The notes beneath the pieces are model-generated. The model was not told the origin of the DNA, searched no databases, and was given only the letters and a program-made list of their open reading frames with translations. The position numbers and the translations under genes were made by a program. A DNA stretch of 53,224 nt from a virus. Location: the IMG/VR virus record IMGVR_UViG_3300036791_000129, positions 1 through 53,224 of that record; one strand, written 5' to 3'. The first letter of the stretch is position 1, and each line of letters starts with the position of its first letter. Below, piece after piece: positions 1-42,423 of this stretch.

Positions 1-505
1 GTTTAAGTATTCCACTATTAACTGCATCAATTAAATTTGGTCGTTTACAATCCAATATAGCAATTGCACGTTCAACAGAACGAAAACCAATATTGAATAT
101 TTCAGCCGCAGCCTTATCAGATTTTTGTTTTTTAAGATATTTACTATCGACTCGTGATAATCTAGCTGCGGACATTGCGCGTCCAGTTTCATCTAAATGC
201 CGACGATGTACATTATGCGAAATAACTAAATCTAACGCTTCTTCATCATTACCTTTAAAATCTTCATAATTCAATTCAATTTCAGGATGACTCAAATATA
301 CACGATAACGATTCCTACCTTCCAATATTTGTTGTTGATAAATAACAATTGGTATTCGCATACCATGTTGTAAAATATCATTTGCTAACTGTTGAAATTC
401 TTCACTATCTGCTGATAGTAATGGAAACACTTCAGCGTATTCATGAAATTCATAAGTATCTTTCTGATCTTTCCATGCATCCCATTTAGGATCATACACT
501 AACAC
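1..505 (-). CDS. N-terminal ParB-like nuclease domain of a ParB/MT-A70 methyltransferase fusion. The gene starts at GTG 505 and continues across the circular junction into 53097..52250.
   Basis: My translation of the minus strand from GTG 505 (GGGAGA Shine-Dalgarno 5 nt upstream) gives VLVYDPKWDAWKD...PIVIYQQQILEGRNRYRV...HNVHRRHLDETGRAMSAARL...AIAILDCKRPNLIDAV. It runs in frame into the start of the 52250..53152 ORF. ILEGRNRY matches the ParB/Srx-type (D/E)GxxR box. Confidence 0.6.
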   Translation of the reverse strand, partial: MLVYDPKWDAWKDQKDTYEFHEYAEVFPLLSADSEEFQQLANDILQHGMRIPIVIYQQQILEGRNRYRVYLSHPEIELNYEDFKGNDEEALDLVISHNVHRRHLDETGRAMSAARLSRVDSKYLKKQKSDKAAAEIFNIGFRSVERAIAILDCKRPNLIDAVNSGILK

Positions 506-528: not shown

Positions 529-563
529 CGCGCCAGAAGCCTATACGAAAGGCTCCTGGCGCG
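529..563 (-). promoter_or_regulatory. Intergenic hairpin built from the genome-wide GCGCCAG(G/A)AG motif
   Basis: cgcgccagaagcc-tatacgaaa-ggctcctggcgcg: 13-bp stem with one mismatch and a 9-nt loop. It lies between the stop of the 671..1447 gene and the ParB-methylase start. No U-tract follows on the transcribed strand. Confidence 0.4.
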
Positions 564-592
564 TCAAGCTGAATCGTGCTGTTAGTATAATT

Positions 593-670: not shown

Positions 671-1447
671 CTACCCCTCCATCCCGGATTCGGCCATTTC
701 TTCGTTTTCGTCATCTTCAATGATTCGTGAAACTGTTAGGCTATCCACTGATACTTTGTAATTAGGATCAGACTCAGGCAAACTTGAATCTACCAACGCA
801 ATGTTACCTGCAATCATATCCTGGCGCACAAACATAGCGTTCGGACCATTGAAGTAAACCTTGCGCCCGCGCTTATTGGTAACAATGATATTCCGCGGAT
901 AATCCAGATTATACAAGTACTGTGCGGTTGACATACCATCACTATAGCAATGTTCCCAATTATGCCAACCTAACGTTGCTTCACGCTTTGGATTCTTAGG
1001 CTTTGCTACCAACAATTTGATTTTGTATTTTTCATCGGACCAGATGGGATGATTCGTGGGCCGCCGCACATAATTAGGTTTAACTGGAGTCGTCACTACT
1101 AAATCTGATTCGTTAGCTTCCCATACTTCAGGATCAATACGAATAGATTTCAACAAACCATGTTCTTCGTCATAGTCACATTCCACTAATTCTTTATCTA
1201 CAAGATGAAGTTTAGCGAATGGCAATACTGCTTTGCGAACTTCACTAGGTAATGCTGAATACGCTATTGATTCACCTAATGGCGCAAGATTCTTGATGGT
1301 ATGCGCCATTTCAATTTCGGCAGGATTGAAGCGGGCGCGCTTTTTGCGCTTCCGCTTAGTGGTTTCTTCCTCATTGGTTGTAGCTTCATCAACTGGTGCG
1401 GAATCAGTAGCTTCCGCATTGTCCGGCATAGTTTGCACATCCGACAA
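671..1447 (-). CDS. Hypothetical protein (258 aa) with an acidic N-terminus followed by a KRKRKKRAR basic patch
   Basis: Long ORF with protein-like composition, the last gene before the large non-coding region. I recognised no family motif. Confidence 0.6.
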   Translation of the reverse strand: MSDVQTMPDNAEATDSAPVDEATTNEEETTKRKRKKRARFNPAEIEMAHTIKNLAPLGESIAYSALPSEVRKAVLPFAKLHLVDKELVECDYDEEHGLLKSIRIDPEVWEANESDLVVTTPVKPNYVRRPTNHPIWSDEKYKIKLLVAKPKNPKREATLGWHNWEHCYSDGMSTAQYLYNLDYPRNIIVTNKRGRKVYFNGPNAMFVRQDMIAGNIALVDSSLPESDPNYKVSVDSLTVSRIIEDDENEEMAESGMEG

Positions 1448-2588
1448 TTTTATTCCCCTTTCACAACTAATATTATTGCGCGATTTCGCGCGCCAGTAGC
1501 GTGCGCTTCTGGCGGTTGAATCGCAACTAGAATCTGCGCCTCACATGCACTTTTCATTTGACCGCCCTAGTTGCTTGGCGCACGCTATTGGCCAAGGGGA
1601 AAGCACATGTTGCACGATACTAGTTGAATCGCGCCAGTAGCGCACACCTTGCATAGTTATTGACGCCTTAACCTTGTGCATTGCTTGCAATGCGCCAGGG
1701 TTTAGTTGCGTCTAGTCAACTTCATCCTGGCGGCTGCCAGGATCGTAGGTGTGCGCCACTTTATATAGTTACGTTGTTATGTAACGCTGAATAGGCGTTA
1801 CGTAGTAACGTGATTATGTAAAGCTTACTCTTGGCGCGCCAGGAAGTAGGTCAGTTTCGCTGTCCTATTCCTGGTGCTAAATAATGAGACTAACCCGCTA
1901 GGCAGTTATGCCCTAGCGGGCCGTCCTGGCCCGTGACTGGTCCCCTGGCCCTATATACGGGCCAGGGTGCAGCTTAGGCCCGCTGTAAGCCCGTCCTAGG
2001 CCCGTTCCGGGCCATCCTGGCATCGTGACTCCCCTGTTGCCTGACCCACTAGCCCAGCACAACCACGGTGCTAGTCAAGTCAACCGTGGTCACATGCTCG
2101 CGAGCCAGGGGCCAACCATAGGTTGTAGAAAAATATCTTGCACACCTACCCAGGGTAGGCTATGGTTCCATTTACTACGTTGACTACACGAAATGATCTT
2201 TGACATTCGAATCTGACCAGGGAAGCAATCACGCGATGGTTGCCACTCTGCTGTTTGGTGCCGGTCTGCAAGTAGCCTTGCCATGTTGGGATGCGTTCCT
2301 CTTGTGCAATTAGATGATGCGAAAGCGATTGGATAGCCTGACAGCTTATGCGCGCCACACTGGCGCGCCCAATGGGCCGCACAAGCGGTCTTGCTTCGCG
2401 ATTTGGTTCCTTGGTTGGCATTCACACTCATTGAAGCTTTGAATCTGGTTTGCATCGGTAGAGCGTAGCGCAAGCTACATACTCGCCGATGATTCCGTTG
2501 TTTCCTTTCAATCTAGGGATTCGCGCTCATAGTAGGCTTGACCCGAACTGGCGCGATGTAATGCAACTAGTATGTTAACAACATACTA
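1448..2588. other. Gene-free divergent control region: candidate origin, operator array or structured RNA
   Basis: No credible ORF; the 2090..2473 and 2146..2421 ORFs have non-protein-like composition. Perfect hairpins lie at 1894..1920, 1918..1932, 1943..1967, 2062..2090, 2114..2167, 2350..2368 and 2568..2588. The 60-nt lines starting at 1921, 1981 and 2041 count 68%, 67% and 58% G+C, in a visibly AT-richer genome. Confidence 0.6.
1975..2020. repeat. Four tandem degenerate 11-12-bp units: taggcccgctg / taagcccgtcc / taggcccgttcc / gggccatcctgg
   Basis: Read directly from the sequence. The period is about one helical turn. A related tggcccgtgac lies at 1927. Confidence 0.6.
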
Positions 2589-2619
2589 ACTGTGACAAGT
2601 CAGTACCAATGCAGAGTTA
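2589..2619 (+). promoter_or_regulatory. Early promoter-like element 1: hairpin actg-TGACAAGT-cagt plus a GAGTTA box
   Basis: Member of a six-copy family. The loop hexamer TGACAA resembles -35 TTGACA. The box lies 15 nt downstream, and the ATG at 2648 follows 28 nt after the box. Confidence 0.5.
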
Positions 2620-2647
2620 AACCTTAATGAAACAAGGAAACTTAAAC

Positions 2648-2821
2648 ATGCGCAAATCACTGATGAAAATGCACGCGCAACTTGAAACCATGTTGTCGCG
2701 CGCACAGGAACTTACTGACAGCGAGAATGAAGATACTGCTAGCAAATACGATGATGTGGCAGGAGAACTTGATACAGCATTAGATGCTATCACTAATGCA
2801 ATGGATATTCTGAACGACTAA
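2648..2821 (+). CDS. Small acidic helical early protein (57 aa)
   Basis: The ORF track starts at 2627. I prefer ATG 2648 because caAGGAAActtaaacATG matches the leader of the other early genes. The protein is rich in D/E. Confidence 0.55.
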   Translation: MRKSLMKMHAQLETMLSRAQELTDSENEDTASKYDDVAGELDTALDAITNAMDILND

Positions 2822-2832
2822 ATGCAGAGTGG

Positions 2833-2852
2833 CGCGCCAGAAGCCTGGCGCG
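2833..2852 (+). terminator. GC-rich hairpin cgcgccag-aagc-ctggcgcg after the first early gene
   Basis: 8-bp perfect stem, followed only by TT, so the U-tract is weak. Confidence 0.4.
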
Positions 2853-2876
2853 TTAATGCACCCAACATAATGTTGG

Positions 2877-2909
2877 CCAGTCACAAGTCTGGATATTGTG
2901 CATTAGTCA
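2877..2909 (+). promoter_or_regulatory. Early promoter-like element 2: hairpin ccag-TCACAAGT-ctgg plus a TAGTCA box
   Basis: 17-nt spacer between the loop hexamer and the box. Enclosed by the inverted repeat TTAATGCAC (2853..2861) / GTGCATTA (2898..2905). Confidence 0.5.
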
Positions 2910-2936
2910 AACCTAGTAAATGAATGGAAATTGAAA

Positions 2937-3632
2937 ATGTTAAGCAACGGAAACAATGGCGTTCTGGTTACTCTGTGTAAGCAGAATCCGGCCGAAATCA
3001 TTCGCAGTGGTGGTATTATCATGCCATCGCCGCGCGTCAATCGCCAGCGCGTAGAGACAATGATCAAATACATTGTTTGTTGTACCGAAGCGCATGGCAA
3101 TGCATTCCTAATCGGAACGGTTGACAAGGTGATTTGGGTTAATGATGAATGCGTAATCAAAATCAACAGTTACGCAAGCATCAACCGCTTACAGGTTTGG
3201 GCTGATGTGGGCACCAAGATTGGCTTTGCCTACTTACAAAGCCCGAGTCAGATTCACATGCATGTTGGTCGTTTGAAGTTCACCAACATCAATGGGAATG
3301 GCAAGTATGGCGATTCCAATAGCTATACTGACGATTATCTGGCCAAGCGTGAGGCGGAAAATTCAACTGCCAAAGCGCAAGCTTCGGTAATCGAGCCCAC
3401 AGAAACCAAGAAAAGCGCCATTGTAGTTTACCCAAAGCCTAAGCAGGAACTTGTTTCACATGTTGACCGCATCGCCACTTTGCGTAAGCAGCTTGCGGAA
3501 CTGGAATCCAATCGCAACGCGATTGCGAAGGAACTAATCGCAAAGTTACATGATCGCGTGACTCAAATGGACGATACTCAAGTTGAGCGCGTGATTGCGT
3601 TTTGCGAAAGGATGCTTGACGAAACCGCCTAA
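2937..3632 (+). CDS. Hypothetical early protein (about 231 aa) with a C-terminal coiled-coil-like segment
   Basis: ORF track 2931..3632 (TTG start). ATG 2937 lies 27 nt after the promoter-like box. Confidence 0.6.
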   Translation: MLSNGNNGVLVTLCKQNPAEIIRSGGIIMPSPRVNRQRVETMIKYIVCCTEAHGNAFLIGTVDKVIWVNDECVIKINSYASINRLQVWADVGTKIGFAYLQSPSQIHMHVGRLKFTNINGNGKYGDSNSYTDDYLAKREAENSTAKAQASVIEPTETKKSAIVVYPKPKQELVSHVDRIATLRKQLAELESNRNAIAKELIAKLHDRVTQMDDTQVERVIAFCERMLDETA

Positions 3633-3643
3633 TTGCAGAAGGG

Positions 3644-3671
3644 AACGCGCGCAATAATATGCGCGCGTTTT
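3644..3671 (+). terminator. Rho-independent terminator aacgcgcgc-aataatat-gcgcgcgtt followed by TTTT
   Basis: 9-bp GC-rich stem followed by a T-run. It lies immediately after the stop at 3632. Confidence 0.7.
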
Positions 3672-3694
3672 AATGCATCATTGCACAAGCGATG

Positions 3695-3727
3695 GCCGTC
3701 CTAAATCGGCATGTTATGCATTAGCTA
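3695..3727 (+). promoter_or_regulatory. Early promoter-like element 3: hairpin gccg-TCCTAAAT-cggc plus a TAGCTA box
   Basis: 17-nt spacer. The outer inverted repeat TAATGCAT (3671..3678) / ATGCATTA (3716..3723) carries a compensatory C:G to T:A change relative to copies 2 and 5. Confidence 0.5.
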
Positions 3728-3756
3728 ACCTAGTGAAGCAAAGGAAAATTGAAACA

Positions 3757-4011
3757 ATGGCACATCCTGAAAACTGGAGTCATATGACTACAGTGGAGAA
3801 ACGCGAGAATGCTAAGAAGCTTTTCAATTCTCCACGCGGTCATTTGATCATTGGTCAAGCTTTGGCGCGTGCAATCCTAATCATGCGTACCGCGGAACAT
3901 CCTGAACGTTCCAACATCGAAGATATGGAATGTTTGGGCATGTTGTTTGAACCGTGGTTTACGATTCACATGAAGCCGATTCCGCCAAACTTGACGAAAG
4001 TGAAGGGATAA
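3757..4011 (+). CDS. Hypothetical early protein (84 aa)
   Basis: The track ORF starts at 3673, but 3673..3756 is the conserved terminator/promoter cassette. aaAGGAAAattgaaacaATG at 3757 fits the early-gene leader. Confidence 0.55.
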   Translation: MAHPENWSHMTTVEKRENAKKLFNSPRGHLIIGQALARAILIMRTAEHPERSNIEDMECLGMLFEPWFTIHMKPIPPNLTKVKG

Positions 4012-4014
4012 CAA

Positions 4015-4221
4015 ATGGCATACGTTTCGCCGAATGCTAAAAGCAAGAAGCAACTCAAAGATTGGCTTGCAGCGGGTAAGTCAATTGAAGTGTTTCAACC
4101 GGGAATGGGAACCATTCCCCTTACTGGCAAGGTTTACCTTGAAGGCCCGCACTATCCTGCGCCACATACTTGGTACGCAGAAGGGATGATGCAGGATGGT
4201 AAACTGGTCAAGGTGAAATAG
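4015..4221 (+). CDS. Hypothetical early protein (68 aa), GPHYPAPHTWYAEG motif
   Basis: ORF tightly packed behind the previous gene (3-nt gap). Confidence 0.6.
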   Translation: MAYVSPNAKSKKQLKDWLAAGKSIEVFQPGMGTIPLTGKVYLEGPHYPAPHTWYAEGMMQDGKLVKVK

Positions 4222-4223
4222 CC

Positions 4224-4493
4224 ATGCTCAAGTTTGACCGCAGTGAGTTCCGCAATGTTGCGCGTGCGATACTAGCGCACAACAAATATGCGAAAGGTGA
4301 TACGATAGACAATATCGTAAGCAGAATGGAAAGCCTAGCCCATTACTATGATCCTAACGCGCCGCATAGTGGGCAGGGGAATGCATGGCATAGCTTTGTT
4401 GCAACTTACGGATTCCTCTTGCTAGGCTATATTGATCAAGAAGGGAATCATTGCATTAAAGCTGCTGTGAGTGACCACTTGTTCGCAATATGA
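4224..4493 (+). CDS. Hypothetical early protein (89 aa)
   Basis: ORF 2 nt after the previous stop, followed by a terminator. Confidence 0.6.
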   Translation: MLKFDRSEFRNVARAILAHNKYAKGDTIDNIVSRMESLAHYYDPNAPHSGQGNAWHSFVATYGFLLLGYIDQEGNHCIKAAVSDHLFAI

Positions 4494-4500
4494 CTACCAA

Positions 4501-4530
4501 GCTTCTGGCCCGTGCAAGCGGGCCAGAAGC
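4501..4530 (+). terminator. Hairpin gcttctggcccg-tgcaag-cgggccagaagc
   Basis: 12-bp perfect stem directly after the stop at 4493, followed by acgTTTaa. Confidence 0.55.
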
Positions 4531-4549
4531 ACGTTTAATGTGGCCAATG

Positions 4550-4583
4550 CCCGTGACAAGCCGGGATGCAAAACACAGAGTCA
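4550..4583 (+). promoter_or_regulatory. Early promoter-like element 4: hairpin cccg-TGACAAGC-cggg plus a GAGTCA box
   Basis: 18-nt spacer. ATG 4614 lies 30 nt after the box. Confidence 0.5.
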
Positions 4584-4613
4584 AACGTGCAACTAATACT
4601 AACAGGAAACAAC

Positions 4614-4850
4614 ATGACGCAAAAAGATTACGTTGTGATTTCACAAGCAATCAAAAACGTTTTGCTTGCGTATCCTAGCAATGAACGAGTCGCAGCGAAA
4701 ATAGCTTTCGCCATTGCTAACGCAATGAAGCGTGACAATCCAAACTTTCGATATGGATTGTTTATGAAAGCTTGCGGCATCAGAATTGATGCCGATGCTC
4801 CGCCAGTTAGCCCGGCAATGGGCGCGTTCAGTGTGATAAAGGAAAGCTAA
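4614..4850 (+). CDS. Hypothetical early protein (78 aa)
   Basis: The track ORF starts at 4566, inside the promoter cassette. acAGGAAAcaacATG at 4614 fits the shared leader. Confidence 0.55.
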   Translation: MTQKDYVVISQAIKNVLLAYPSNERVAAKIAFAIANAMKRDNPNFRYGLFMKACGIRIDADAPPVSPAMGAFSVIKES

Positions 4851-4851
4851 C

Positions 4852-5070
4852 ATGACAGAAGTGTTCTGGATTGGCGATCCACCAGACCAGTGCAACATTT
4901 GTGGTAGTGAAATAACTACCACTTTTGTTGATGGGCGCACGCGCGCGCATGGTTCATGGGCGTGCATGTGCCTTGCCTGTCACCAAGGCTATGGCGTTGG
5001 TCTCGGTACTGGTAATGGTCAAGTGTTCACTAAGCAAGATGATGGCCAGTGGTTAAAAGTAGAAGGTTAA
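4852..5070 (+). CDS. Small Cys-rich (zinc-ribbon-like) early protein (72 aa)
   Basis: CNICG...CMCLAC gives two Cys pairs. The start is adjacent to the previous stop. Confidence 0.6.
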   Translation: MTEVFWIGDPPDQCNICGSEITTTFVDGRTRAHGSWACMCLACHQGYGVGLGTGNGQVFTKQDDGQWLKVEG

Positions 5071-5093
5071 CTAACAAACGGAATGCAGAAGGG

Positions 5094-5121
5094 AACGCGC
5101 GCCAGTAATGGCGCGCGTTTT
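5094..5121 (+). terminator. Rho-independent terminator aacgcgcgcc-agtaat-ggcgcgcgtt followed by TTTT
   Basis: 10-bp GC stem plus a T-run. It is a paralogue of the 3644 terminator and shares the upstream AATGCAGAAGGGA. Confidence 0.7.
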
Positions 5122-5139
5122 AATGCACTGGCATTGCCA

Positions 5140-5174
5140 GCGAGTCCTAAGTCTCGCATGTTGTGCATTAACTA
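5140..5174 (+). promoter_or_regulatory. Early promoter-like element 5: hairpin gcgag-TCCTAAGT-ctcgc plus a TAACTA box
   Basis: 18-nt spacer. Outer inverted repeat TTAATGCAC (5120..5128) / GTGCATTAA (5163..5171). Confidence 0.5.
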
Positions 5175-5202
5175 ACCCTAGTAAATGAAAGTGAAAAGTA
5201 AA

Positions 5203-5577
5203 ATGAATCTCTCGCTTGATGGTGTCACTATTGTTCTGAGTGACACAATGCTGGATCAATTAGCCGAAGTGGTAAAGCGCAAGCTTTGTCTTGATGCTTT
5301 TGAAGCCAAGGTAACTGCTGATATCGAGGATATTGAATCCAGGCTTGATGGCAGTGATTTGGAATCCAAAACTGAGGAACTTGATTCTAAAGTTGATGAT
5401 TTTGAATCCAAAGTTGAGGAACTTGATTCTAAAGTTGATGATTTTGAATCCAAACTTGATGATTTGGAATCCAAAATCAATGCTGCGGAATCCAGCACAG
5501 ATGGCGTGCGCAAGCTAGTGCGCGCGTTGCGTAATGCTTTGACGGTTTATGAAGATAATCAAATCGAAACGGAATAA
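5203..5577 (+). CDS. Highly acidic tandem-repeat coiled-coil early protein (about 124 aa)
   Basis: The track starts at 5185; ATG 5203 lies 28 nt after the box. It contains ESK(T/V)EELDSKVDDF repeats. Confidence 0.6.
   Translation: MNLSLDGVTIVLSDTMLDQLAEVVKRKLCLDAFEAKVTADIEDIESRLDGSDLESKTEELDSKVDDFESKVEELDSKVDDFESKLDDLESKINAAESSTDGVRKLVRALRNALTVYEDNQIETE
5362..5445 (+). repeat. Two 42-bp tandem repeats with degenerate flanking copies, inside the acidic early gene
   Basis: gaatccaaa(ac/gt)tgaggaacttgattctaaagttgatgatttt at 5362..5403 and 5404..5445. Confidence 0.85.
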
Positions 5578-5584
5578 CTACTAC

Positions 5585-5616
5585 ACTCCTGGCGCTTGCG
5601 CGCCAGGAGTATTTTT
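5585..5616 (+). terminator. Rho-independent terminator actcctggcgc-ttgc-gcgccaggagt followed by ATTTTT
   Basis: 11-bp perfect stem made of both orientations of the over-represented motif, followed by a T-run. It lies directly after the stop at 5577. Confidence 0.75.
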
Positions 5617-5634
5617 GCTTTTAAACAGCCTATG

Positions 5635-5667
5635 TCCGTGACAAGCCGGAATGAAAAATGTGAGTCA
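5635..5667 (+). promoter_or_regulatory. Early promoter-like element 6: hairpin tccg-TGACAAGC-cgga plus a GAGTCA box
   Basis: 17-nt spacer. The stem differs from element 4 by a compensatory pair (C:G to T:A). Confidence 0.5.
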
Positions 5668-5703
5668 AAAGCAAACCTAAATTGACAAGGAAAGTGAAAC
5701 AAC

Positions 5704-5937
5704 ATGATAAAGCCAAAAGCCTCGCATGGTGACTATGAAGGAATGCATCCATTCAAAAATGGCCATGGCCATTTTGAAGTGTTCTGGATTAGTAACAATA
5801 CTGAAGGCTTTGAAAGTTGCGAGCCAGGATGGTACTGGTGGACTTGCGAGCCAGGATGCTTGCCTGACTCCGAGCCTAACGGACCATTCAACACTAGCTA
5901 CATGGCATGGCGCGATGCGAAAGGGTTAGACCAATGA
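5704..5937 (+). CDS. Hypothetical early protein (77 aa), GWYWWTCEPGCLPD motif
   Basis: ORF with an aAGGAAAgtgaaacaacATG leader. Confidence 0.6.
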   Translation: MIKPKASHGDYEGMHPFKNGHGHFEVFWISNNTEGFESCEPGWYWWTCEPGCLPDSEPNGPFNTSYMAWRDAKGLDQ

Positions 5938-6161
5938 CTCGGCATTATAAATATCAAGTGCAAGTTAGAGATGGCAACAACTCTAAAGTTACACTTGATG
6001 GCGTTGTCGAGTGTGAATTTGTCAACGTTTTTGATCGCGTTATATCCGAAACGTTTGGCATTTTGACTCATGGTGAAGCTTTGTATGGACACCCTGGACA
6101 TGGTTGCGTTGGTCCATATAAAGTGATTCGCGTTCTTATAACCAGTGTAGGCTCGCAATGA
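5934..6161 (+). CDS. Hypothetical early protein (75 aa)
   Basis: The track starts at 5907. ATG 5934 forms an ATGA overlap with the previous stop, suggesting translational coupling. Confidence 0.5.
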   Translation: MTRHYKYQVQVRDGNNSKVTLDGVVECEFVNVFDRVISETFGILTHGEALYGHPGHGCVGPYKVIRVLITSVGSQ

Positions 6162-6421
6162 AACATCATCAAGTATTGTGGTTAGCAATTGCTGTCATAG
6201 TGGCGTTGCTACTAATTGGTATGGTTACGGCGCACAGTGAAACCACATGCAAGCGCGATAGCTTTGGTGTGGTGCATTGCACCGCGCCAGAAGCTAACGG
6301 AACTATCCAGCGTGATAGTTTCGGAACCACGCATGAAACCTGGCAAGATAATCGTGACAACGTTCAACATTGCACTAGCTACGTTGACAGTTTCCACACT
6401 CTGCATCGCCAGTGTAACTAA
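6158..6421 (+). CDS. Small secreted or membrane-anchored protein (87 aa)
   Basis: Hydrophobic N-terminus LWLAIAVIVALLLIGMV, an internal RDSFG..H duplication and four Cys. ATGA overlap with the previous gene. Confidence 0.55.
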   Translation: MKHHQVLWLAIAVIVALLLIGMVTAHSETTCKRDSFGVVHCTAPEANGTIQRDSFGTTHETWQDNRDNVQHCTSYVDSFHTLHRQCN

Positions 6422-6508
6422 CGCAACACTTACGAAATGAACGCCAAGGGAAACTTTGGCGATTCATTTCGCCAGCGTTGTGCTGGATACTGAAAGGAAA
6501 ATGAAACA

Positions 6509-6862
6509 ATGGAAACAGTCGAAATGGTGGTGTACTTCATTGACTCTGTGAATCAAGTAATCGAACGACGAGTCATTGATGTGCCAAGTGATATGCGCAA
6601 GTTGATTGGTGGTTATATTGAGTTAGCATATAGCTATCCAAATGGTGATGTGTTGTATGTTGACGAGGAAGGTTTGTTGAAAAATAACCCAACCGGATTC
6701 CTATTTGCATATCGCCAGGATCAACCACTAGTCGGCAATGGCGTGGTATGTGGTAAGGAACTTGAAGGAAATTTTCCTGAAGGTTTCATCACATTAGAAC
6801 CAGAAACAAAACTTGAAAAGTTGCGAAAAGAAGTGAAATTCTTTCGGGTATTAGGTCAATGA
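6509..6862 (+). CDS. Hypothetical early protein (117 aa), DUF3846-like pattern
   Basis: The pattern LIGGYIELAY...LYVDEEGLLKNNP...GNGVVCG recalls the DUF3846 family common in phage and plasmid early regions. This is from memory only. Confidence 0.5.
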   Translation: METVEMVVYFIDSVNQVIERRVIDVPSDMRKLIGGYIELAYSYPNGDVLYVDEEGLLKNNPTGFLFAYRQDQPLVGNGVVCGKELEGNFPEGFITLEPETKLEKLRKEVKFFRVLGQ

Positions 6863-7047
6863 TAGAAACTCAAATCATTGATTTCAAATTGCTACGTATG
6901 GAATGCTGCGGTCATTTACTTTGTTGGATAAATCCGCGCTTTCCTACTTACTGTCCTGAATGTGGCAAAGGTTGCTATCCAGCTTGTAAAGGCTGGATAA
7001 CACTGCATCCAACTTATGCAAGACTAACTTATGAAATAATAAGATAA
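6859..7047 (+). CDS. Small zinc-ribbon protein (62 aa)
   Basis: CCGH...CPECGKGC cluster. ATGA overlap with the previous gene. Confidence 0.5.
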   Translation: MIETQIIDFKLLRMECCGHLLCWINPRFPTYCPECGKGCYPACKGWITLHPTYARLTYEIIR

Positions 7048-7051
7048 AACG

Positions 7052-7079
7052 GAAGCTACTGGCGCGGGCCAGTAGCTTC
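7052..7079 (+). terminator. Hairpin gaagctactggc-gcgg-gccagtagcttc
   Basis: 12-bp perfect stem 5 nt after the stop at 7047. No T-run; its 3' arm is shared with the 42-bp palindrome. Confidence 0.45.
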
Positions 7080-7114
7080 TATAACGTAACCAATTGGTTA
7101 CGTTATAGAAGCTA
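7073..7114. repeat. Perfect 42-bp palindrome tagcttctataacgtaaccaattggttacgttatagaagcta
   Basis: Checked base by base. The centre is CCAATTGG and it contains ACGTAAC/GTTACGT half-sites. It overlaps the expected -35 position of the promoter for the 7149 gene. Confidence 0.9.
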
Positions 7115-7148
7115 ATGCTTCATCCCCTAGTAAATGAAAGGAAAGCAA

Positions 7149-8276
7149 ATGAAACTAACGGAAAAACGCAAGCCTAGTTTGGCTGATATATTTGTCAATC
7201 AACGATTCGATAATCTCTCGCGAGCGCGAGTGCCATTGAAAACGATTGCAGATATACAAGTCAAAGTTAGGCGCGCAAAAAAGTATCTGTTTGATGATGC
7301 CGCAAGTATTCGCGTTGCTGAAGTTGTGCGCGATATTCCCGAATTACTAATCAGGGAAAGTAAATTCGCGCGCGCACCCTACGAACTAACTTGGATTGAA
7401 TTTAATTCAAGTTTGTTCTGGCAAACCTTGCATGATGATGTAGGACATGAAGATCATGCTAGAAATATTGGCATCTTGATTGATGGCGATATGGTGATCA
7501 CTATAACAGGTGGTTATCCATCTGATCCATTGACCACCATGCTTACACCTTTCGCCTACGGTTTGAATACTGACCCTGATCAATGGCGTATGCTTGGTGC
7601 GCCAGAATCAAACTTGAAAACAAGTTTGACAGTGAAACAAATACCCATTGACCAGTTTATGCAAACCGTAAATCGTTTCTATTGGGGATCAACTGCTGCA
7701 AGCATACCTGATGAAATCTTAAACCCCATCAGTAAAAACTTCAGTAGTTGGGCAATAATCGAACGAGTACTTCATTTGTCCGAAAAAAAGTTGTTATTCG
7801 TAATGAAGGAATGCCAAGGCGATTTGCGCAACATCATTGCGTTACTGTTGATGTTGAATCGTCCTAGCATAACCCGCTATGTGCAAGACTTGCCAAACCG
7901 TCGCGGTTTCTTGCGCAACAAGTTGATCGCCTATCAAGCGCATACATCAGTCACAGTATCGCTTGATCCTAAGCCAATCTTGAAATTGATTGGCACACCG
8001 CAAGGTGAGTCAGTTGAACGTCGCTGGCATGAAGTGGAGGGTCACTATTGCCACGATAGAACATCACGCGATTACGCAAGAATCGCAGGTTGCTTGCATG
8101 ATTGGCAAGATACAGATGATGAATGGACGCTACTGCGCCAGGGTCACGCACATTCAAAAGTTGAACACTGGATTTGCAAGGCATGTGGTGGCAAGCGTTG
8201 GTGGCGTGATTCACATTCACGCGGCAATCCGCTTATTGGCATGGTGAAAAGAGATCAATACAATGTCGTGCCATAG
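7149..8276 (+). CDS. Hypothetical protein (about 375 aa) with a C-terminal Cys/His cluster
   Basis: The track starts at 7134; aAAGGAAAgcaaATG favours 7149. C-terminus: HYCHD...CLHDW...HWICKACGGKRWW. Confidence 0.65.
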   Translation: MKLTEKRKPSLADIFVNQRFDNLSRARVPLKTIADIQVKVRRAKKYLFDDAASIRVAEVVRDIPELLIRESKFARAPYELTWIEFNSSLFWQTLHDDVGHEDHARNIGILIDGDMVITITGGYPSDPLTTMLTPFAYGLNTDPDQWRMLGAPESNLKTSLTVKQIPIDQFMQTVNRFYWGSTAASIPDEILNPISKNFSSWAIIERVLHLSEKKLLFVMKECQGDLRNIIALLLMLNRPSITRYVQDLPNRRGFLRNKLIAYQAHTSVTVSLDPKPILKLIGTPQGESVERRWHEVEGHYCHDRTSRDYARIAGCLHDWQDTDDEWTLLRQGHAHSKVEHWICKACGGKRWWRDSHSRGNPLIGMVKRDQYNVVP

Positions 8277-8311
8277 GAAATAACGGAATCAAGCAAACCA
8301 GATTTAAAGCC

Positions 8312-8346
8312 AATGCTCCTGGCCCGCGCCAGGAGCATTTCTTTTG
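8312..8346 (+). terminator. Rho-independent terminator aatgctcctggc-ccgc-gccaggagcatt followed by TCTTTTGTTTG
   Basis: 12-bp perfect stem plus a T-rich tail, at the convergent junction of the plus and minus transcription units. Confidence 0.75.
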
Positions 8347-8369
8347 TTTGTTGCTGTTAGATATTCTAT

Positions 8370-8597
8370 CTACTTATGAATCAAATTATGCACGGCATCA
8401 CAATCTTCTTTTACAGGAATGAATGTGCCATTGACCATGCCAATAACGCAATGTGTGCCACGCGCAAAATGCTTTAAGTCATTGCCTAATGGTTCGCGCA
8501 AACTAGTTACTTCATGCGGATTGACAAACACACGTTGGCCATTTGGCCCGTGCAATAATACAAGATCAATAAAGGTTGCAAAAATAAGTGCAATCAC
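8370..8597 (-). CDS. Hypothetical small protein (75 aa, GTG start)
   Basis: ORF overlapping the upstream small ORF by GTGA. The hydrophobic N-terminus and the NG..V.VNPHEV...NG.FIPVKEDCD pattern are weakly reminiscent of FlbD-type proteins. Not relied on. Confidence 0.45.
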   Translation of the reverse strand: MIALIFATFIDLVLLHGPNGQRVFVNPHEVTSLREPLGNDLKHFARGTHCVIGMVNGTFIPVKEDCDAVHNLIHK

Positions 8598-8761
8598 GTT
8601 GCTTTAGCATTAGCTTCTGCTAGAAATGCCGCCAAGTTTTCATCAATCGGTTGGCAACTTTTCACTAACTCTATCAAATCAACTTTAGGAACATCAATCA
8701 TCTTTTGTATAGCCAACAATGACTCTTTAGTTTCAGCATCAGATTGTTTAATATCAGTCAT
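8594..8761 (-). CDS. Hypothetical small acidic protein (55 aa), not in the ORF track
   Basis: My translation: MTDIKQSDAETKESLLAIQKMIDVPKVDLIELVKSCQPIDENLAAFLAEANAKAT. A GGAGA Shine-Dalgarno lies 6 nt upstream of ATG 8761. Confidence 0.4.
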   Translation of the reverse strand: MTDIKQSDAETKESLLAIQKMIDVPKVDLIELVKSCQPIDENLAAFLAEANAKAT

Positions 8762-8771
8762 ATTGTTTCTC

Positions 8772-40577: not shown

Positions 40578-41623
40578 TTTACATTCTCCCGATATATTGC
40601 TTGTTTTCCCATCTTGATACCATCTAAGATGGTTTGCATATCTTTCTTGAAATTACGCTGGCCACTCCAATCATTGCAAGAGTCATAAGCCGATTCAATC
40701 GCTTCAATTTCATCTAACACATTTTGACCAATTAGTTTACCTAACAAAATACAATAGCCAAACAGCATGTTGTGACGTTCACCAGTACCAAGTCTACCAA
40801 TTTTGAAATATAAGCTTTCAGAAATTCGCTTGGCACTTTGCTTGGTATATCTAACTTCTTCATCAATAATGCGGCGTGGTGGCGGCATAGTAACCGAAAC
40901 ACCTTTCGATTCACCACCATACCACAAAATACGTTGCTTTACCGGGTCAGTTATACCAACAAATATAGGTGCCGCAGTATAAATTGGTTGTATTGGATTG
41001 AACAACGTTAGATCAATAGCTGCGCCAGGAGCATCAGCTTTTAACCAAGTTTTCAATTCATAATTACTGACCGGACGATCGGCCCAAAAGAAAACGCGCA
41101 TTCTAATATCGGGCTTAATGCTATAACTAGCTGATGCAACAGCGAAACATTCAGCCACACTAAATGGCAACGGTAATTTCATTAATACATTATTCAAATG
41201 TGCTTGTAGATTCCATTTCCAATCTTCGTGATAACCCTCCATATCACCTAATTGATCATCATCAAATTTGGTAGATAATCCATCAATATCTAACGCAAAC
41301 CAGTTTTGATCTTCTAGAACTAACGTAGCTTCATCACCAACATATTTTCTAACTACATGTTTTCTATTATTCATATCTTTAACCCGCGCACGTAAGAAAC
41401 AGCAGCGCGGTTTAGCTAACATCCTTTGGCTTAGTAAAAACAGATCATGTAAATTCCATATTTCAACTTCATAAAAGTTGAAATATTTAACGCGATCATA
41501 TGCAACTTGATGGTCAGGAAAATTGCGTTTGGTCAACACCAAGTTCGGCGAGGCAGCTTGCGCGACTGTGACCATATTGGGCTTGACACTGGCGAAATTG
41601 TCACTATAAAGGGAGTCAGACAT
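40574..41623 (-). CDS. Replication initiation / primase-polymerase-like protein (tentative)
   Basis: NWFALDIDG resembles AEP motif I. It is translationally coupled to the helicase gene. The other AEP motifs are not clear. Confidence 0.3.
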   Translation of the reverse strand: MSDSLYSDNFASVKPNMVTVAQAASPNLVLTKRNFPDHQVAYDRVKYFNFYEVEIWNLHDLFLLSQRMLAKPRCCFLRARVKDMNNRKHVVRKYVGDEATLVLEDQNWFALDIDGLSTKFDDDQLGDMEGYHEDWKWNLQAHLNNVLMKLPLPFSVAECFAVASASYSIKPDIRMRVFFWADRPVSNYELKTWLKADAPGAAIDLTLFNPIQPIYTAAPIFVGITDPVKQRILWYGGESKGVSVTMPPPRRIIDEEVRYTKQSAKRISESLYFKIGRLGTGERHNMLFGYCILLGKLIGQNVLDEIEAIESAYDSCNDWSGQRNFKKDMQTILDGIKMGKQAIYRENVK

Positions 41624-41645
41624 GGTGGCGTCCTTTCGTTGCTAT

Positions 41646-41693
41646 GTTAGACATTGCGGGTGTATCCTCGTAGTGTGGCGTTAGACATTGCGG
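41646..41693. repeat. Two exact 14-bp direct repeats GTTAGACATTGCGG (41646..41659 and 41680..41693)
   Basis: Read directly from the sequence, 34 bp apart, just upstream of the minus-strand replication operon start. Confidence 0.85.
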
Positions 41694-41797
41694 CTTCCTT
41701 CGCTGGGTATGACGTGATGTTCGTTGCGTTCCTGTTGTATGCTCTTTCATGCTTTGTTCCATGGGCATGTTAGGGATTTGCTTACTACCCTTAACTG

Positions 41798-41835
41798 CGC
41801 TCCTGGCGGTCTTTCCCTCGCCAGGAGCGATTTTT
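41798..41835 (+). terminator. Hairpin cgctcctggcg-gtctttccct-cgccaggagcg followed by ATTTTT
   Basis: 11-bp perfect stem made of the over-represented motif. The T-run is on the plus strand, but no plus-strand gene lies upstream. Confidence 0.4.
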
Positions 41836-41905
41836 AGGGGAATTGCAAGCCTAACATAACAACACTGTCACAGGCAAGCCATAATCGTGAATCGTAATAA
41901 CTACG

Positions 41906-42196
41906 ATGACGAAATCTGTTATCTATCCCAAATCACCAATTGATAGTTTGATAATACTATGGGCTTGTTGTGTTATTGACTATTACAAAGATAACCGTAA
42001 ATTATTAGCGCCACTTTATATGCGCCAAGAATTAGGTGAGGAAGCGCAACAGTTGTTCGCTGATGCCTGTTATCTTGCTGATGGTGTTTTCCTTGACACC
42101 TACAAAATGCAGCTAACCAAACGCGGGCAATTTATCTGTGATAACTGGCAAGTTATCAGTGACAGGATATTTAGAGTCAATGCTAACCCGCATTAA
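41906..42196 (+). CDS. Hypothetical protein (96 aa), a lone plus-strand gene inside the minus-strand block
   Basis: ORF convergent with the GcrA-like gene, with only a 5-nt gap. Confidence 0.5.
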   Translation: MTKSVIYPKSPIDSLIILWACCVIDYYKDNRKLLAPLYMRQELGEEAQQLFADACYLADGVFLDTYKMQLTKRGQFICDNWQVISDRIFRVNANPH

Positions 42197-42201
42197 CTTT
42201 A

Positions 42202-42423
42202 CTAACGACTATATTTACCGCCGCGTTGTTTAGTTGATTTTTCCAGCGGAATGATTGGTTCGCGCCGTGGAAACAATTCACGATGCCTGCGAATTAGTCC
42301 AGCTAACGCGCCAGGAGTTAGCAATAATTGCTTGGCAATTTTTGGCGTGGTAATGCCATTATTCCAAAGTTGAATTGCTACTTTCAATTTGGCTTCCGAA
42401 TGCACTATCCTCTTGTCTGTCAT
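42202..42423 (-). CDS. GcrA-like HTH protein (73 aa)
   Basis: KLKVAIQLWNNGITTPKIAKQLLLTPGALAGLIRRH resembles the GcrA N-terminal pattern LW..G.S...IA..LG.T.NAV.G...R. Confidence 0.5.
   Translation of the reverse strand: MTDKRIVHSEAKLKVAIQLWNNGITTPKIAKQLLLTPGALAGLIRRHRELFPRREPIIPLEKSTKQRGGKYSR

Follow-up and report, generated by a model that had tools for sequence, protein, structure and literature searches.

What does a phage genome hold in more than a kilobase of DNA without genes? In the window, by which we mean the whole stretch of 53,224 nucleotides analysed here (IMG/VR record IMGVR_UViG_3300036791_000129), positions 1448 to 2588 separate the gene for a 258-aa protein and the leftward replication genes from the rightward early genes. 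A sequence-only reading of this region had offered several candidates: a replication origin with iterons, an array of partition or operator sites, or a large structured non-coding RNA of the GOLLD or ROOL kind. We find that the 1.1-kb region is composite and comprises a DNA-level element, a putative structured leader RNA and a predicted twister ribozyme. At a probability of roughly one half, we favour the reading that this sole divergent control region combines an origin or operator array in the DNA with an RNA leader that masks the ribosome site of the first early gene and a twister that cuts the leader off. The evidence consists of sequence features, conservation, covariation in one subgroup of relatives, ribozyme matches and complementarity; from it we infer the promoters, the transcription and in vivo cleavage of the RNA, the effect on regulation and the role as origin or operators.

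The locus and its relatives

The phage genome is circular (53.1 kb, with an overlap of 127 nt between the termini), and the gene-free 1.1 kb is its sole divergent junction. The only other apparent gap of 1 kb, at 41623-42646, contains small ORFs, and the region is therefore the longest non-coding stretch, as had been claimed. Comparison with related phages, a check proposed by the sequence-only reading, revealed the same layout in 12 related lineages, i.e. a homologue of the 258-aa protein, a gene-free spacer and divergent early genes, together with conserved blocks and a long-range stem common to all 12. The spacer mostly measures 1.0-1.45 kb in these relatives, and 0.44-0.52 kb in those with extra genes.

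The window's own lineage stands without a close relative. A blastn search of positions 1300-2750 against 50,697 phage records gave no match, viral contigs scanned with just the 258-aa protein returned nothing, and a search with the 57-aa first early protein yielded no candidates. Viral-contig scans with the DNA pattern of a conserved block (B5, see below) returned L004 and L005 only. Vibrio phage VA-RY-3 provided the best polymerase match (38% identity) but is not syntenic and was discarded as a relative. The scan of GTDB genomes produced chance matches only, none of them resembling the window; one match, L100, has the look of a diversity-generating retroelement. A search for tRNA genes was negative.

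The only long ORFs of the region lie on the minus strand (2090-2473 and 2146-2421). A homologous conserved element, compared in four pairs of relatives, carries stops in all six frames; its substitutions are spread evenly across codon phases, and its indels are not multiples of three. No gene is called across the spacer in most relatives, and small ORFs are called inside it in L091 and L097. The stops in all frames and the lack of codon periodicity in the four pairs exclude a missed or frameshifted protein gene, and the region was rightly described as non-coding.

Hairpins and repeats of the left part

Seven perfect hairpins had been listed for the region, and all proved exact when the sequence was read again:

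1894-1902/1912-1920: perfect hairpin, 9 bp
1918-1922/1928-1932: perfect hairpin, 5 bp
1943-1951/1959-1967: perfect hairpin, 9 bp
2062-2069/2083-2090: perfect hairpin, 8 bp
2114-2121/2160-2167: perfect hairpin, 8 bp, enclosing CCTACC/GGTAGG
2350-2357/2361-2368: perfect hairpin, 8 bp
2568-2576/2580-2588: perfect hairpin, 9 bp

The left part, from 1448 to about 2137, contains in addition the following larger elements:

1448..1660: zone adjoining the leftward operon, with nested long-range inverted repeats (1453-1460/1593-1600 and 1492-1506/1578-1592)
1636..1760: long-range inverted repeat of the minimum free energy (MFE) structure, arms 1636-1649/1747-1760, enclosing the hairpins 1672-1699 and 1693-1732
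1759..1823: A+T-rich palindrome with 29-nt arms (1759-1787/1795-1823) and four GTTAC/GTAAC half-sites
1834..2104: G+C-rich island with the hairpins 1894-1920, 1918-1932, 1943-1967 and 2062-2090 and recurring CCTGGC/GCCAGG words

The plus strand of 1448-2104 folds with −299 kcal/mol compared with −217.6±6.0 kcal/mol for dinucleotide shuffles (z = −13.5; none of 20 shuffles was as good), and the minus strand has a z-score of −10.4. Left parts of the relatives reach z-scores from −2 to −11 on both strands. The inverted repeats show neither a strand preference nor a G·U strand asymmetry.

The promoter and the 5′ untranslated region of the 258-aa gene are probably located in the zone adjoining the leftward operon. 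Promoter-like sites are found within about 60-190 nt of the homologous gene in relatives; the window itself offered none that is clear. The direct repeats reported from this part are exact (CGCGCCAGTAGCG at 1489 and 1630, GTTGAATCGC at 1515 and 1623). Also present are the GTTAC/GTAAC half-sites noted before. They lie within one palindrome, which by its sequence might serve as an operator or an unwinding element; CCAATTGG at 7073-7114 is flanked by this half-site too, and ACGTAAC/ACGTAGG repeats related to it occur in L090, L096 and L005. The local G+C richness was borne out with a peak of 0.58 in 1801-2100 against about 0.42 in the genome, and relatives carry equivalent G+C-rich islands with repeats. 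The T(A/G)GCCCG units at 1975-2020 had been described as four tandem copies. Four copies exist but not in tandem: three are direct at 11-nt spacing (1975-2004) and one is inverted. Tandem Repeats Finder reported nothing in this region of the window; relatives possess clearer arrays, i.e. short tandem repeats with periods of 8, 9 or 11 nt whose sequences differ between lineages.

Because the inverted repeats are strand-neutral, the tandem repeats lineage-specific and a replication module adjoins, the stretch from 1448 to about 2137 is most likely an array of protein-binding sites acting as origin or operators, and it is probably situated between divergent promoters. Its sites would serve a replication origin and/or the operators of an early/middle switch, placed between the leftward promoter of the 258-aa gene and the replication genes on one side and the rightward early promoter on the other. 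A candidate binder is the 258-aa protein, which may adopt a winged-helix-like fold; its structural model (pLDDT 68.8) gave consistent but weak Foldseek matches to MarR/PadR winged-helix domains (E about 0.1, probability up to 0.94). Cumulative GC skew, suggested previously as a check, turns at the region; the turn coincides with the switch in gene orientation and is inseparable from it. As direct marks of an origin, neither a skew signal separable from gene orientation nor initiator homology was found. A partition site for the neighbouring ParB-domain protein, one of the functions initially considered, is unlikely. This protein is a 450-aa fusion of a ParB-like N-terminus (PHROG matches) with an MT-A70 methyltransferase domain, which points to DNA methylation rather than segregation as its function. 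The homologous gene in relatives is annotated as MT-A70 only, and no dedicated ParB segregation protein was found next to the repeats.

The candidate early promoter

The left part ends at a putative rightward promoter:

2114..2167, plus strand: inverted repeat AACCATAG/CTATGGTT, surrounding the candidate early promoter
2138-2166, plus strand: candidate early promoter (−35 TTGCAC at 2138-2143, 17-nt spacer, −10 TATGGT at 2161-2166)

An early promoter next to 2588 had been assumed before. The position 2138-2166 is more likely, judging from a promoter-like motif conserved in relatives 50-100 nt upstream of a sequence block termed B1 (CTTG(A/T/C)(A/C)A, 16-17 nt and a YAYRTN-like hexamer). The motif is recovered by a strict pattern in 10 of 13 sequences, and by eye clear variants are seen in L094 and L098 and weaker ones in L005 and L096. 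The assignment is a consensus match only, and a generic sigma-70 scan returned no plus-strand promoter in the spacer. B1 and a further block, B5, are each single-copy in the window, have no copies elsewhere in the genome and are therefore not general phage promoters.

A probable structured leader RNA in the right third

The proposal of a large structured non-coding RNA holds for the right third of the region (about 2173-2559) and fails for the 1.1 kb as a whole as well as for GOLLD and ROOL. The leader probably extends over about 385 nt rather than the full 1.1 kb and has the following parts:

2173..2559, plus strand: conserved structured 5′ leader RNA of the early operon; putative 5′ end from the promoter, 3′ end at the predicted ribozyme cut
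2195..2213, plus strand: block B1, GATCTTTGACATTCGAATC, in all lineages
2208..2422, plus strand: long-range stem S1 (5′ strand about 2208-2229, 3′ strand about 2400-2422)
2420..2445, plus strand: block B3, ATTCACACTCATTGAAGCTTTGAATC, a second, diverged version of the B1 motif, in all lineages
2453..2491, plus strand: hairpin H4, variable in sequence and length in every lineage
2495..2518, plus strand: block B5, CCGTTGTTTCCTTTCAATCTAGGG, anti-Shine-Dalgarno and anti-leader, the most conserved block, in all lineages
2521..2556, plus strand: hairpin H5 (TCGCGC...GCGCGA) between B5 and the ribozyme, with equivalents in relatives

S1 closes a variable domain of several stems, among them the conserved hairpin 2350-2368. 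Its RNAduplex energy is −39.5 kcal/mol compared with −25.4±4.0 kcal/mol for a shuffled partner, a difference that is strand-ambiguous. The stem is also part of the MFE structure of the window, and 12 of 12 lineages have a stem, of unrelated sequence, whose end is no more than 2 nt away from B3. The right parts of L001 and L004 are 71% identical over 410 nt; the 258-aa homologues flanking them are only about 36-42% identical to the window's protein. By sequence matches, the leader has a promoter-like motif upstream and a same-strand ribozyme downstream.

Compensatory changes support the structure in the subgroup L095/L097/L091. For these three sequences, and with the structure predicted from the same alignment, we counted 19 compensatory pairs, compared with 6.6±2.0 in shuffles (none of 500 as high) and 0-1 with slid partners. 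In the consensus structure of this subgroup 96% of the cells are paired, and RNAalifold assigned −98.7 kcal/mol to the plus strand versus −83.5 kcal/mol to the minus strand. Structures in the other subgroups are weaker or unverified. Folding of 2105-2520 is unexceptional in the window (z = −1.4 on the plus and −2.4 on the minus strand) and likewise in several relatives. Neither z-scores nor internal G·U counts of single sequences told the strands apart, and global MAFFT alignments of 2, 4 or 12 spacer sequences were uninformative beyond B5.

The recommended Rfam scan with Infernal (cmscan of 1200-2900, both strands, 4227 families, E ≤ 10) returned only twisters and chance microRNA-like matches. 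GOLLD and ROOL are excluded, as there was no covariance-model match even at E = 10, and RNase P, tmRNA, group I or II introns, retron RNA and a CRISPR array were dismissed with neither Rfam matches nor associated genes. Judged by its sequence, the leader is a candidate for a new structured RNA family.

Might the whole 1.1 kb function as DNA only, with origin, promoters and operators, with B1, B3 and B5 as protein-binding sites and the stems as palindromic operators or cruciforms, so that RNA structure would be incidental? We regard this as unlikely. It would be in line with inverted repeats that fold equally on either strand, single-sequence folds without G·U asymmetry, weak folding z-scores in the right part, TTGACA-like hexamers within B1 and B3 and the operator-like overlap of the 2114-2167 inverted repeat with the promoter. 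However, S1 links sites 150-300 nt apart by sequences that are unrelated in each lineage, and the compensatory pairs of L095/L097/L091 fall into nested, multi-branch helices. Moreover, the invariant G·U pairs of this subgroup favour the plus strand, on which the energy is better by 15 kcal/mol. The strand-specific ribozyme directly downstream in most lineages and the complementarity of B5 to the ribosome site likewise argue for an RNA.

Predicted pairing of B5 with the ribosome site

The partner of B5 lies downstream of the ribozyme:

2623..2650, plus strand: leader of the first early gene, with its Shine-Dalgarno sequence AAGGAAAC and start codon (ATG at 2648)

B5 is able to pair with the Shine-Dalgarno sequence and the start region. 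In the MFE structure of the window it pairs with 2623-2642, forming a helix that encloses the twister, and pairing between B5 and the first-gene ribosome site is part of the MFE structure in 12 of 12 lineages. Between 16 and 27 such pairs are expected in 11 lineages, compared with 6-14 with shuffled B5, in a calculation in which the window's own run used a wrong start codon. RNAalifold found no column-wise consensus among the 12 segments from B5 to the start codon because bulges differ between lineages. B5 is complementary to early-gene ribosome sites generally (3-8 SD above shuffles in most lineages), and cognate pairs are slightly stronger than non-cognate ones (−20.6 vs −18.7 kcal/mol). As this difference is small, the complementarity of B5 could merely reflect a leader-like sequence on the other strand.

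A different role would fall to B5 if the ribozyme freed the leader as a trans-acting non-coding RNA, either with B5 as antisense repressor of all early genes or with the variable domain as decoy or effector. Complementarity to the shared leader of essentially all early genes and almost equal pairing with cognate and non-cognate ribosome sites would suit such an RNA; ribozyme cleavage would define its 3′ end, and a hairpin follows the predicted 5′ end in relatives. Nevertheless, one leader per transcript with about 13 ribosome sites makes for a poor repressor stoichiometry, and L001 and L095 have no releasing ribozyme, so that we consider this quite unlikely.

Very unlikely is a functional minus strand, on which the leftward transcript would begin at the right end of the spacer, the spacer would be the long 5′ UTR of the replication operon and the reverse complement of B5 a ribosome site plus ATG of a short upstream ORF. 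The reverse complement does read CCTAG..GAAAGGAACAATGG, which resembles early-gene leaders, an ATG is present in 11 of 12 lineages, and the two strands have similar folding z-scores. However, the ensuing ORFs comprise 5-27 codons of unrelated sequence, the window lineage has no start codon at this place, and the Shine-Dalgarno sequence is about 3 nt away from the ATG compared with 6-8 nt in real early genes. The consensus fold is 15 kcal/mol better on the plus strand, with G·U pairs turning into A·C mismatches on the minus strand, and the leftward promoter candidates are located close to the 258-aa gene.

A predicted twister ribozyme

The last element of the region reaches into the first early gene's leader:

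2555-2622, plus strand: predicted type-P1 twister ribozyme (Rfam RF03160, 42.1 bits)

The 2568-2588 hairpin is an exact 9-bp stem and, according to the Rfam match, the P3 stem of this twister. The match has an E-value of 6e-7 to 6e-6, but its 42.1 bits are below the gathering score of 67.2. Aligned to the family consensus, the core contains in order UAA, P2 (UGCA/UGCA), P3, the P4 loop GUGACAAGUC and GAG, with a predicted cut between U2559 and A2560. P2 and P4 pair in four aligned twister copies, and P1 of the 2555-2622 twister contains non-canonical pairs. A covariance model built here (R1) gave 57.3 bits for 2555-2622, a sequence in its training set.

This twister is the first of six between the early genes. 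Rfam models detected those at 2555-2622, 2823-2892, 3634-3710, 4532-4587 and 5084-5156, two of which (2823-2892 with 53.7 bits and 5084-5156 with 40.2 bits) exceed the type-P5 threshold of 37.6. The sixth, at 5618-5670, was found via R1 and lies outside its training set. Twisters occur at the same site as the first in L097, L096, L091 and L099 (R1, outside training) and in L004 (Rfam), and hammerhead cores can be read from the sequence there in L005 and L094. L001 and L095 keep B5 and have no recognisable ribozyme. A fixed site at which two unrelated ribozyme classes interchange argues that selection acts on cleavage itself.

It is scarcely credible that the leader works in cis as a processive antiterminator, in the manner of the put RNAs of phage HK022, for reading through early-operon terminators: it does directly follow the promoter of an operon with terminator-like hairpins (e.g. 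5580-5615), and in L001 B5 is immediately followed by a terminator-like hairpin and its U tract, but the leader has no likeness to known antiterminator RNAs in Rfam and is about five times the size of put, a ribozyme severing the RNA from the elongating polymerase fits a tethered antiterminator poorly, and the B5:ribosome-site complementarity would be left unexplained.

A model for the divergent control region

The favoured reading, an origin or operator array followed by a masking leader and a twister, can be extended to a mechanism. Transcription from the candidate early promoter (2138-2166) would produce a leader of about 385 nt, in which the long-range stem would close the variable multi-helix domain between two UCUUUGACAAU-like blocks. 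The 3′ block B5 (UUUCCUUUC...CUAGG) would base-pair with the first early gene at its leader, Shine-Dalgarno sequence and start codon region; this pairing would keep the gene untranslatable in the primary transcript. The B5:ribosome-site helix closes a loop in which the twister is predicted to lie. Self-cleavage of the twister would sever the leader from the message and turn a stable intramolecular clamp into a two-piece duplex, which may free or tune translation of the first early gene and leave a 5′-OH message. All six twisters together would cut the early transcript into single-gene units.

Only tentatively do we consider that the leader of about 385 nt represents a new class of cis-regulatory RNA, in which a sensor-like S1 domain between the UCUUUGACAAU blocks might control the B5 clamp and the ribozyme might provide an irreversible release. 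According to a review (PMC6765202), what twister, hammerhead and related ribozymes do in bacteria and phages is for the most part not yet understood. The present phage clade yields a testable hypothesis, namely that cleavage releases or tunes translation and parts a structured leader from the message. If the sensor-like reading of the leader were true, small self-cleaving ribozymes would gain a defined regulatory role in a phage early operon. At the DNA level, a likely origin or operator region has been located for a poorly known group of soil phages with a gene for a DNA polymerase III alpha subunit.

Comparison with known systems

Iteron-type origins are exemplified by RK2 oriV and lambda ori. 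The left part resembles them in having short direct repeats at approximately helical spacing and A+T-rich beside G+C-rich segments, in adjoining the first replication-module gene and in carrying repeats that differ between related replicons. Unlike these origins, the window has only three direct copies and one inverted copy, which could equally be operators.

Riboswitch expression platforms and RNA thermometers are 5′ leaders that sequester the Shine-Dalgarno sequence, and glmS is a ribozyme-riboswitch in a 5′ UTR. In a similar way, a pyrimidine-rich segment of the leader described here pairs with the Shine-Dalgarno sequence and start region of the downstream gene and, as in glmS, a predicted self-cleaving ribozyme of the 5′ UTR would be coupled to downstream gene expression. 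In contrast to riboswitches and glmS, masking segment and ribosome site are about 110-130 nt apart with the ribozyme between them, and the ribozyme is a constitutive-type twister or hammerhead rather than a metabolite-dependent one as in glmS. The window leader is without homology to any Rfam leader.

With GOLLD and ROOL the leader shares the features of a phage-borne, conserved multi-helix RNA of several hundred nucleotides without coding potential. In contrast to both, it is a 5′ leader attached to an operon rather than a free-standing gene, it is smaller (about 300-450 nt) and its inner domain is not conserved between subgroups.

The predicted ribozyme has the features of the twister family (clan CL00120; RF03160 type P1, RF02684 type P5), i.e. 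UAA, P2, GCC...GU..CAAG.. in the P4 loop, ..GAG and an optional P3; unlike accepted RF03160 members, 2555-2622 is below the type-P1 gathering score. Clustered self-cleaving ribozymes flank genes in prophages, and in the haloarchaeal virus HF2 a hammerhead is situated just upstream of the first ORF of the early polycistronic transcript, whose mapped 5′ end is the cleavage site (Perreault et al. 2011, PMC3088659). Like the prophage clusters, the window has small ribozymes that separate the individual genes of a long phage transcript, implying single-gene messages, and like HF2 it has a ribozyme upstream of the first early gene. Unlike the systems described in that paper, it has twisters, which belong to two permutation types, twister and hammerhead interchange at one site among relatives, a conserved leader of 300-450 nt precedes the ribozyme, and the first ribozyme lies in a loop closed by pairing between a conserved leader block and the ribosome site.

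Genomic context of the junction

The ends of the window overlap by 127 nt (1-127 = 53098-53224), which shows that the genome is complete and circular, with 53,097 bp; the gene running off the window start resumes at its end. Plus-strand genes occupy 2627-8276 and all others lie on the minus strand, from 1447 round the circle to 8772. Thus, the gene-free region 1448-2588 is the sole divergent junction. At 8300-8770 the early operon runs convergently into the long minus-strand operon; the strong hairpin there, which carries a T tract (8318-8350), probably acts as a terminator. No close isolate phage was found, the best identity of the DNA polymerase III alpha subunit being 38%.

Relatives were collected in two steps starting from the 258-aa protein encoded left of the spacer, first one homologue with its contig, then alignments and fetched contigs. 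Twelve lineages share the synteny of a 258-aa homologue, a ParB-like/MT-A70 gene, polymerase and helicase, with small early genes on the opposite side. Their gene-free spacers are mostly 1.0-1.45 kb long; those of contigs L091 and L097 measure 0.44-0.52 kb, with extra genes in both, and extra genes also occur in L001 (spacer ~1.2 kb).

The 258-aa protein (671-1447, minus strand) is basic in an N-terminal stretch and ends in an acidic tail. A family match was not found, and a search among 5.8 billion proteins found only 17 cluster representatives. Weak but consistent Foldseek matches of its AlphaFold model (pLDDT 68.8, core ~80-88) to MarR/PadR winged-helix DNA-binding domains (E ~0.1, probability up to 0.94) weakly suggest a winged-helix-like domain. 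The neighbouring "ParB-domain" gene (505..1 joined to 53097..~51748, minus strand) encodes a 450-aa fusion protein, ParB-like in its N-terminal domain and continuing into an MT-A70 DNA methyltransferase domain (Pfam, 75.6 bits). This fusion argues against a partition system and hence against the partition array that had been considered for the region.

Left two-thirds: repeat-rich, probably a DNA element

The region is real and composite, and its earlier interpretation is partly supported. On rereading the sequence, all hairpins listed by the sequence-only reading proved exact in coordinates and stem lengths, as did the direct repeats CGCGCCAGTAGCG (1489, 1630) and GTTGAATCGC (1515, 1623). The GTTAC/GTAAC half-sites are present as a palindrome at 1759-1823, and the local G+C richness is confirmed (peak 0.58 in 1801-2100 versus ~0.42 for the genome). 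Of four supposed tandem units, three are direct copies, but the fourth is inverted and Tandem Repeats Finder reports none.

The density of inverted repeats in 1448-2104 is far above chance. The predicted fold reaches -299 kcal/mol, where dinucleotide-shuffled sequences average -217.6±6.0 (z = -13.5), and the minus strand gives z = -10.4. Folding of 2105-2520 is ordinary (z = -1.4 on the plus and -2.4 on the minus strand). The homologous part of the relatives is likewise hairpin-rich with both strands alike (z between -2 and -11). The strands do not differ in their share of internal G·U pairs (113/1406 versus 121/1413), which is consistent with selection on palindromes in the DNA duplex and not on a single RNA strand. 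A G+C-rich island packed with CCTGGC/GCCAGG, CCTAGG and CCATGG words occurs in all lineages, and the short tandem repeats are lineage-specific.

Short repeats in the spacers of the window and of related contigs
Window: T(A/G)GCCCG, 11-nt spacing; plus GTTAC half-sites
L004: TAGCTGCTAGA, 11-nt spacing
L005: (A/G)CGTAGGA, 8 nt
L090: TGCCAGGGC, 9 nt
L095: CTAGNTGC, 8 nt
L096: ACGTAACGCC, 39 nt

In the relatives, promoter-like sites for the leftward operon lie ~60-190 nt from the 258-aa gene. Together with the early promoter candidate at 2138-2166, they probably place ~1650-2137 between divergent promoters. GC skew changes sign at the region, but gene orientation switches at the same place and the skew therefore does not locate an origin. 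We infer that the left part is an array of protein-binding sites, most likely an origin and/or operators.

Related elements occur elsewhere. Just before the 380-aa gene (7134), 7056-7125 holds a hairpin CTACTGGCGCGGGCCAGTAG and, after it, a perfect 42-bp palindrome in which GTTAC/GTAAC half-sites flank CCAATTGG; the same half-sites at 1759-1823 suggest that a single regulator binds both. Hairpins of the types GGCGCGCC and CTCCTGGCGC...GCGCCAGGAG recur between genes of this genome and its relatives. Some of these recurrent hairpins are ribozyme stems, others are terminator-like.

Recurrent hairpins of these types in the window
530-570
1486-1512
1834-1846
2350-2368
2830-2856
5580-5603
8318-8342

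Right third: a conserved structured element

The large structured RNA proposed as one candidate for the region is partly borne out: comparative sequence analysis indicates that the right third is conserved between lineages, does not code for protein and is structured. The left two-thirds show the behaviour of a DNA element. Over 410 nt of the right element, contigs L001 and L004 are 71% identical, and other pairs share 70-83%; the flanking 258-aa proteins are only ~36-42% identical to that of the window. In line with the presumed non-coding status, four pairwise alignments of the element lacked a coding signal, with substitutions equally frequent in the three phases, indels that are not multiples of three and several stops in each of the six frames. 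The suggested Rfam scan returned nothing in 1448-2554, even at E = 10. The order of parts is common to all lineages: a hairpin, block B1, a variable region of 150-300 nt, B3, a variable hairpin and B5.

Conserved blocks (window coordinates)
2195-2213: B1, GATCTTTGACAATCGAATCC
2420-2445: B3, ATTCACAYTCTTTGACAAT
2495-2518: B5, TCCATTGTTCCTTTC..TTCGAA.CTAGG; in the window CCGTTGTTTCCTTTCAATCTAGGG

B1 and B5 are single-copy in the window genome and so do not represent general promoters. A long-range stem, S1, links the sequence right after B1 to a sequence ending at most 2 nt from B3 in every lineage. The S1 sequences are unrelated between lineages, and in the window the stem reaches -39.5 kcal/mol versus -25.4±4.0 with a shuffled partner. 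Covariation was evaluated in the three-sequence subgroup L095/L097/L091, with the structure predicted from the same alignment. RNAalifold yielded 96 pairs, 19 of them with compensatory two-sided changes, and 96% of cells paired; shuffled controls gave 6.6±2.0 compensatory pairs (0/500 as high) and slid partners 0-1. Several invariant plus-strand G·U pairs would become A·C mismatches on the other strand. In other subgroups the structures are weaker or unverified, and the window's lineage is without a close relative.

A promoter-like motif, C(C)CTTG(A/T/C)(A/C)A followed after 16-17 nt by a YAYRTN-like hexamer, precedes B1 by 50-100 nt. The strict pattern matches 10 of 13 sequences; by eye, clear variants are seen in L094 and L098 and weaker ones in L005 and L096. 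The early promoter is probably ~400 nt to the left of the position assumed by the sequence-only reading.

Candidate early promoter of the window (consensus match only)
2138-2143, plus strand: TTGCAC
17-nt spacer
2161-2166, plus strand: TATGGT

As this motif lies inside the 2114-2167 inverted repeat, the repeat looks like an operator overlapping the candidate promoter. An exact 15-mer, CAACCATAGGTTGTA, is common to window 2114-2127 and L001 ~7969-7983, the rest of the spacers being unalignable; it is a near-palindrome (AACC ATA GGTT) and serves in the window as left arm of the repeat around the candidate promoter.

Read as its reverse complement, B5 is similar to the leader that the early genes have in common, CCTAG..GAAAGGAAA..ATG. 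When the stretch from B5 to the first start codon is folded, B5 pairs in 12/12 lineages with the first early gene's leader, Shine-Dalgarno sequence and AUG over a long helix with interruptions, which encloses a hairpin and the ribozyme. Expected pairs number 16-27 in 11 lineages other than the window's, versus 6-14 with shuffled B5. The window's helix joins 2500-2518 to 2623-2642 and includes the pairing of GUUUCCUU with AAGGAAAC. B5 is also complementary to other early ribosome sites (3-8 SD over shuffled B5 in most lineages), cognate B5 pairings being slightly better than non-cognate ones (-20.6 versus -18.7 kcal/mol).

Predicted ribozymes between the early genes

A predicted type-P1 twister, a self-cleaving ribozyme, marks the 3′ boundary of the right element. 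Its score lies below the Rfam gathering score of 67.2, but all core elements align, and the 9-bp hairpin at 2568-2588, present as described, is reassigned to its P3 stem. Four further copies between early genes were detected by Rfam, and a covariance model built from four Rfam-supported copies added a sixth.

Twisters in the window
2555-2622, plus strand: type P1, Rfam 42.1 bits, E = 6e-7
2823-2892, plus strand: above type-P5 threshold
3634-3710, plus strand: 36.6 bits
4532-4587, plus strand: Rfam
5084-5156, plus strand: above type-P5 threshold
5618-5670, plus strand: own covariance model

The five additional twisters (2823-5670) comprise three type-P5-like and two type-P1-like copies. Each is followed by the shared leader, so that the early operon looks cut into single-gene messages.

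At the site before the first early gene, the same model detects twisters outside its training set in L097 (49.9 bits), L096 (33.7), L091 (31.7) and L099 (23.3), and Rfam detects one in L004. Instead, L005 (~7360-7410) and L094 (~4960-5020) show type III hammerhead cores by reading (CUGAYGA..GAAAC; minus strand of the loci). L098 (~4700-4760, minus strand) has a variant core and L090/L093 an unscored twister-like sequence. A recognisable ribozyme is absent before the first early gene of L001 and L095; in L001 the place is taken by a hairpin that resembles a terminator and has a U tract. That two unrelated ribozyme classes occupy one syntenic site speaks for selection of cleavage there and for transcription of the plus strand through it. 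In L090 (300-1560) and L093 (minus strand), scored ribozymes are missing between early genes, each of which is preceded by a ~25 bp perfect hairpin and a small hairpin TTGCTTAGAAGCAATG; this pair may be a different processing signal.

A model for the right element and its alternatives

The sequence features and their conservation, the covariation, the matches to ribozymes and the complementarity are observed; the course of events proposed from them is as follows. Early transcription would start near 2173, and the ~385-nt leader would fold such that B5 covers the first ribosome site. Twisters cleave at a U-A step, and the cut would fall at U2559/A2560, a position taken from the family consensus alignment; it would remove the leader and leave a duplex of two pieces in place of an intramolecular clamp. 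The other twisters would divide the transcript into single-gene messages with 5′-OH ends.

A released RNA acting in trans is compatible with most of the data. A DNA-only reading fits the left part but leaves the nested compensatory helices, the strand preference, the helix between B5 and the ribosome site and the ribozymes unexplained. The notion of a minus-strand 5′ UTR with an upstream ORF draws on an "ATG" after a Shine-Dalgarno-like sequence, which the complementarity of B5 to ribosome sites explains. It is weakened by unrelated, non-conserved ORFs of 5-27 codons after the B5 complement (none in the window), by a short Shine-Dalgarno-to-ATG spacing and by a consensus fold that in L095/L097/L091 is 15 kcal/mol poorer on that strand (-83.5 versus -98.7). 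An antiterminator RNA is possible but unsupported.

Comparison with known systems

The left part probably represents an ordinary origin/operator region; more unusual is the right part, which forms with its ribozyme a testable regulatory arrangement. Within a limited search of the open-access literature, three features seem to be new: the long conserved leader, the clamp enclosing a ribozyme and the replacement of one ribozyme class by another at a single site. The review by Weinberg et al. (2019, PMC6765202) calls the functions of these ribozymes in phages and bacteria still largely elusive. Hammerhead clusters flanking single prophage genes and a hammerhead located 5′-terminally in the early transcript of virus HF2 have been described (Perreault et al. 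2011, PMC3088659). The twister array of the window resembles the prophage clusters and is a new example of a known arrangement.
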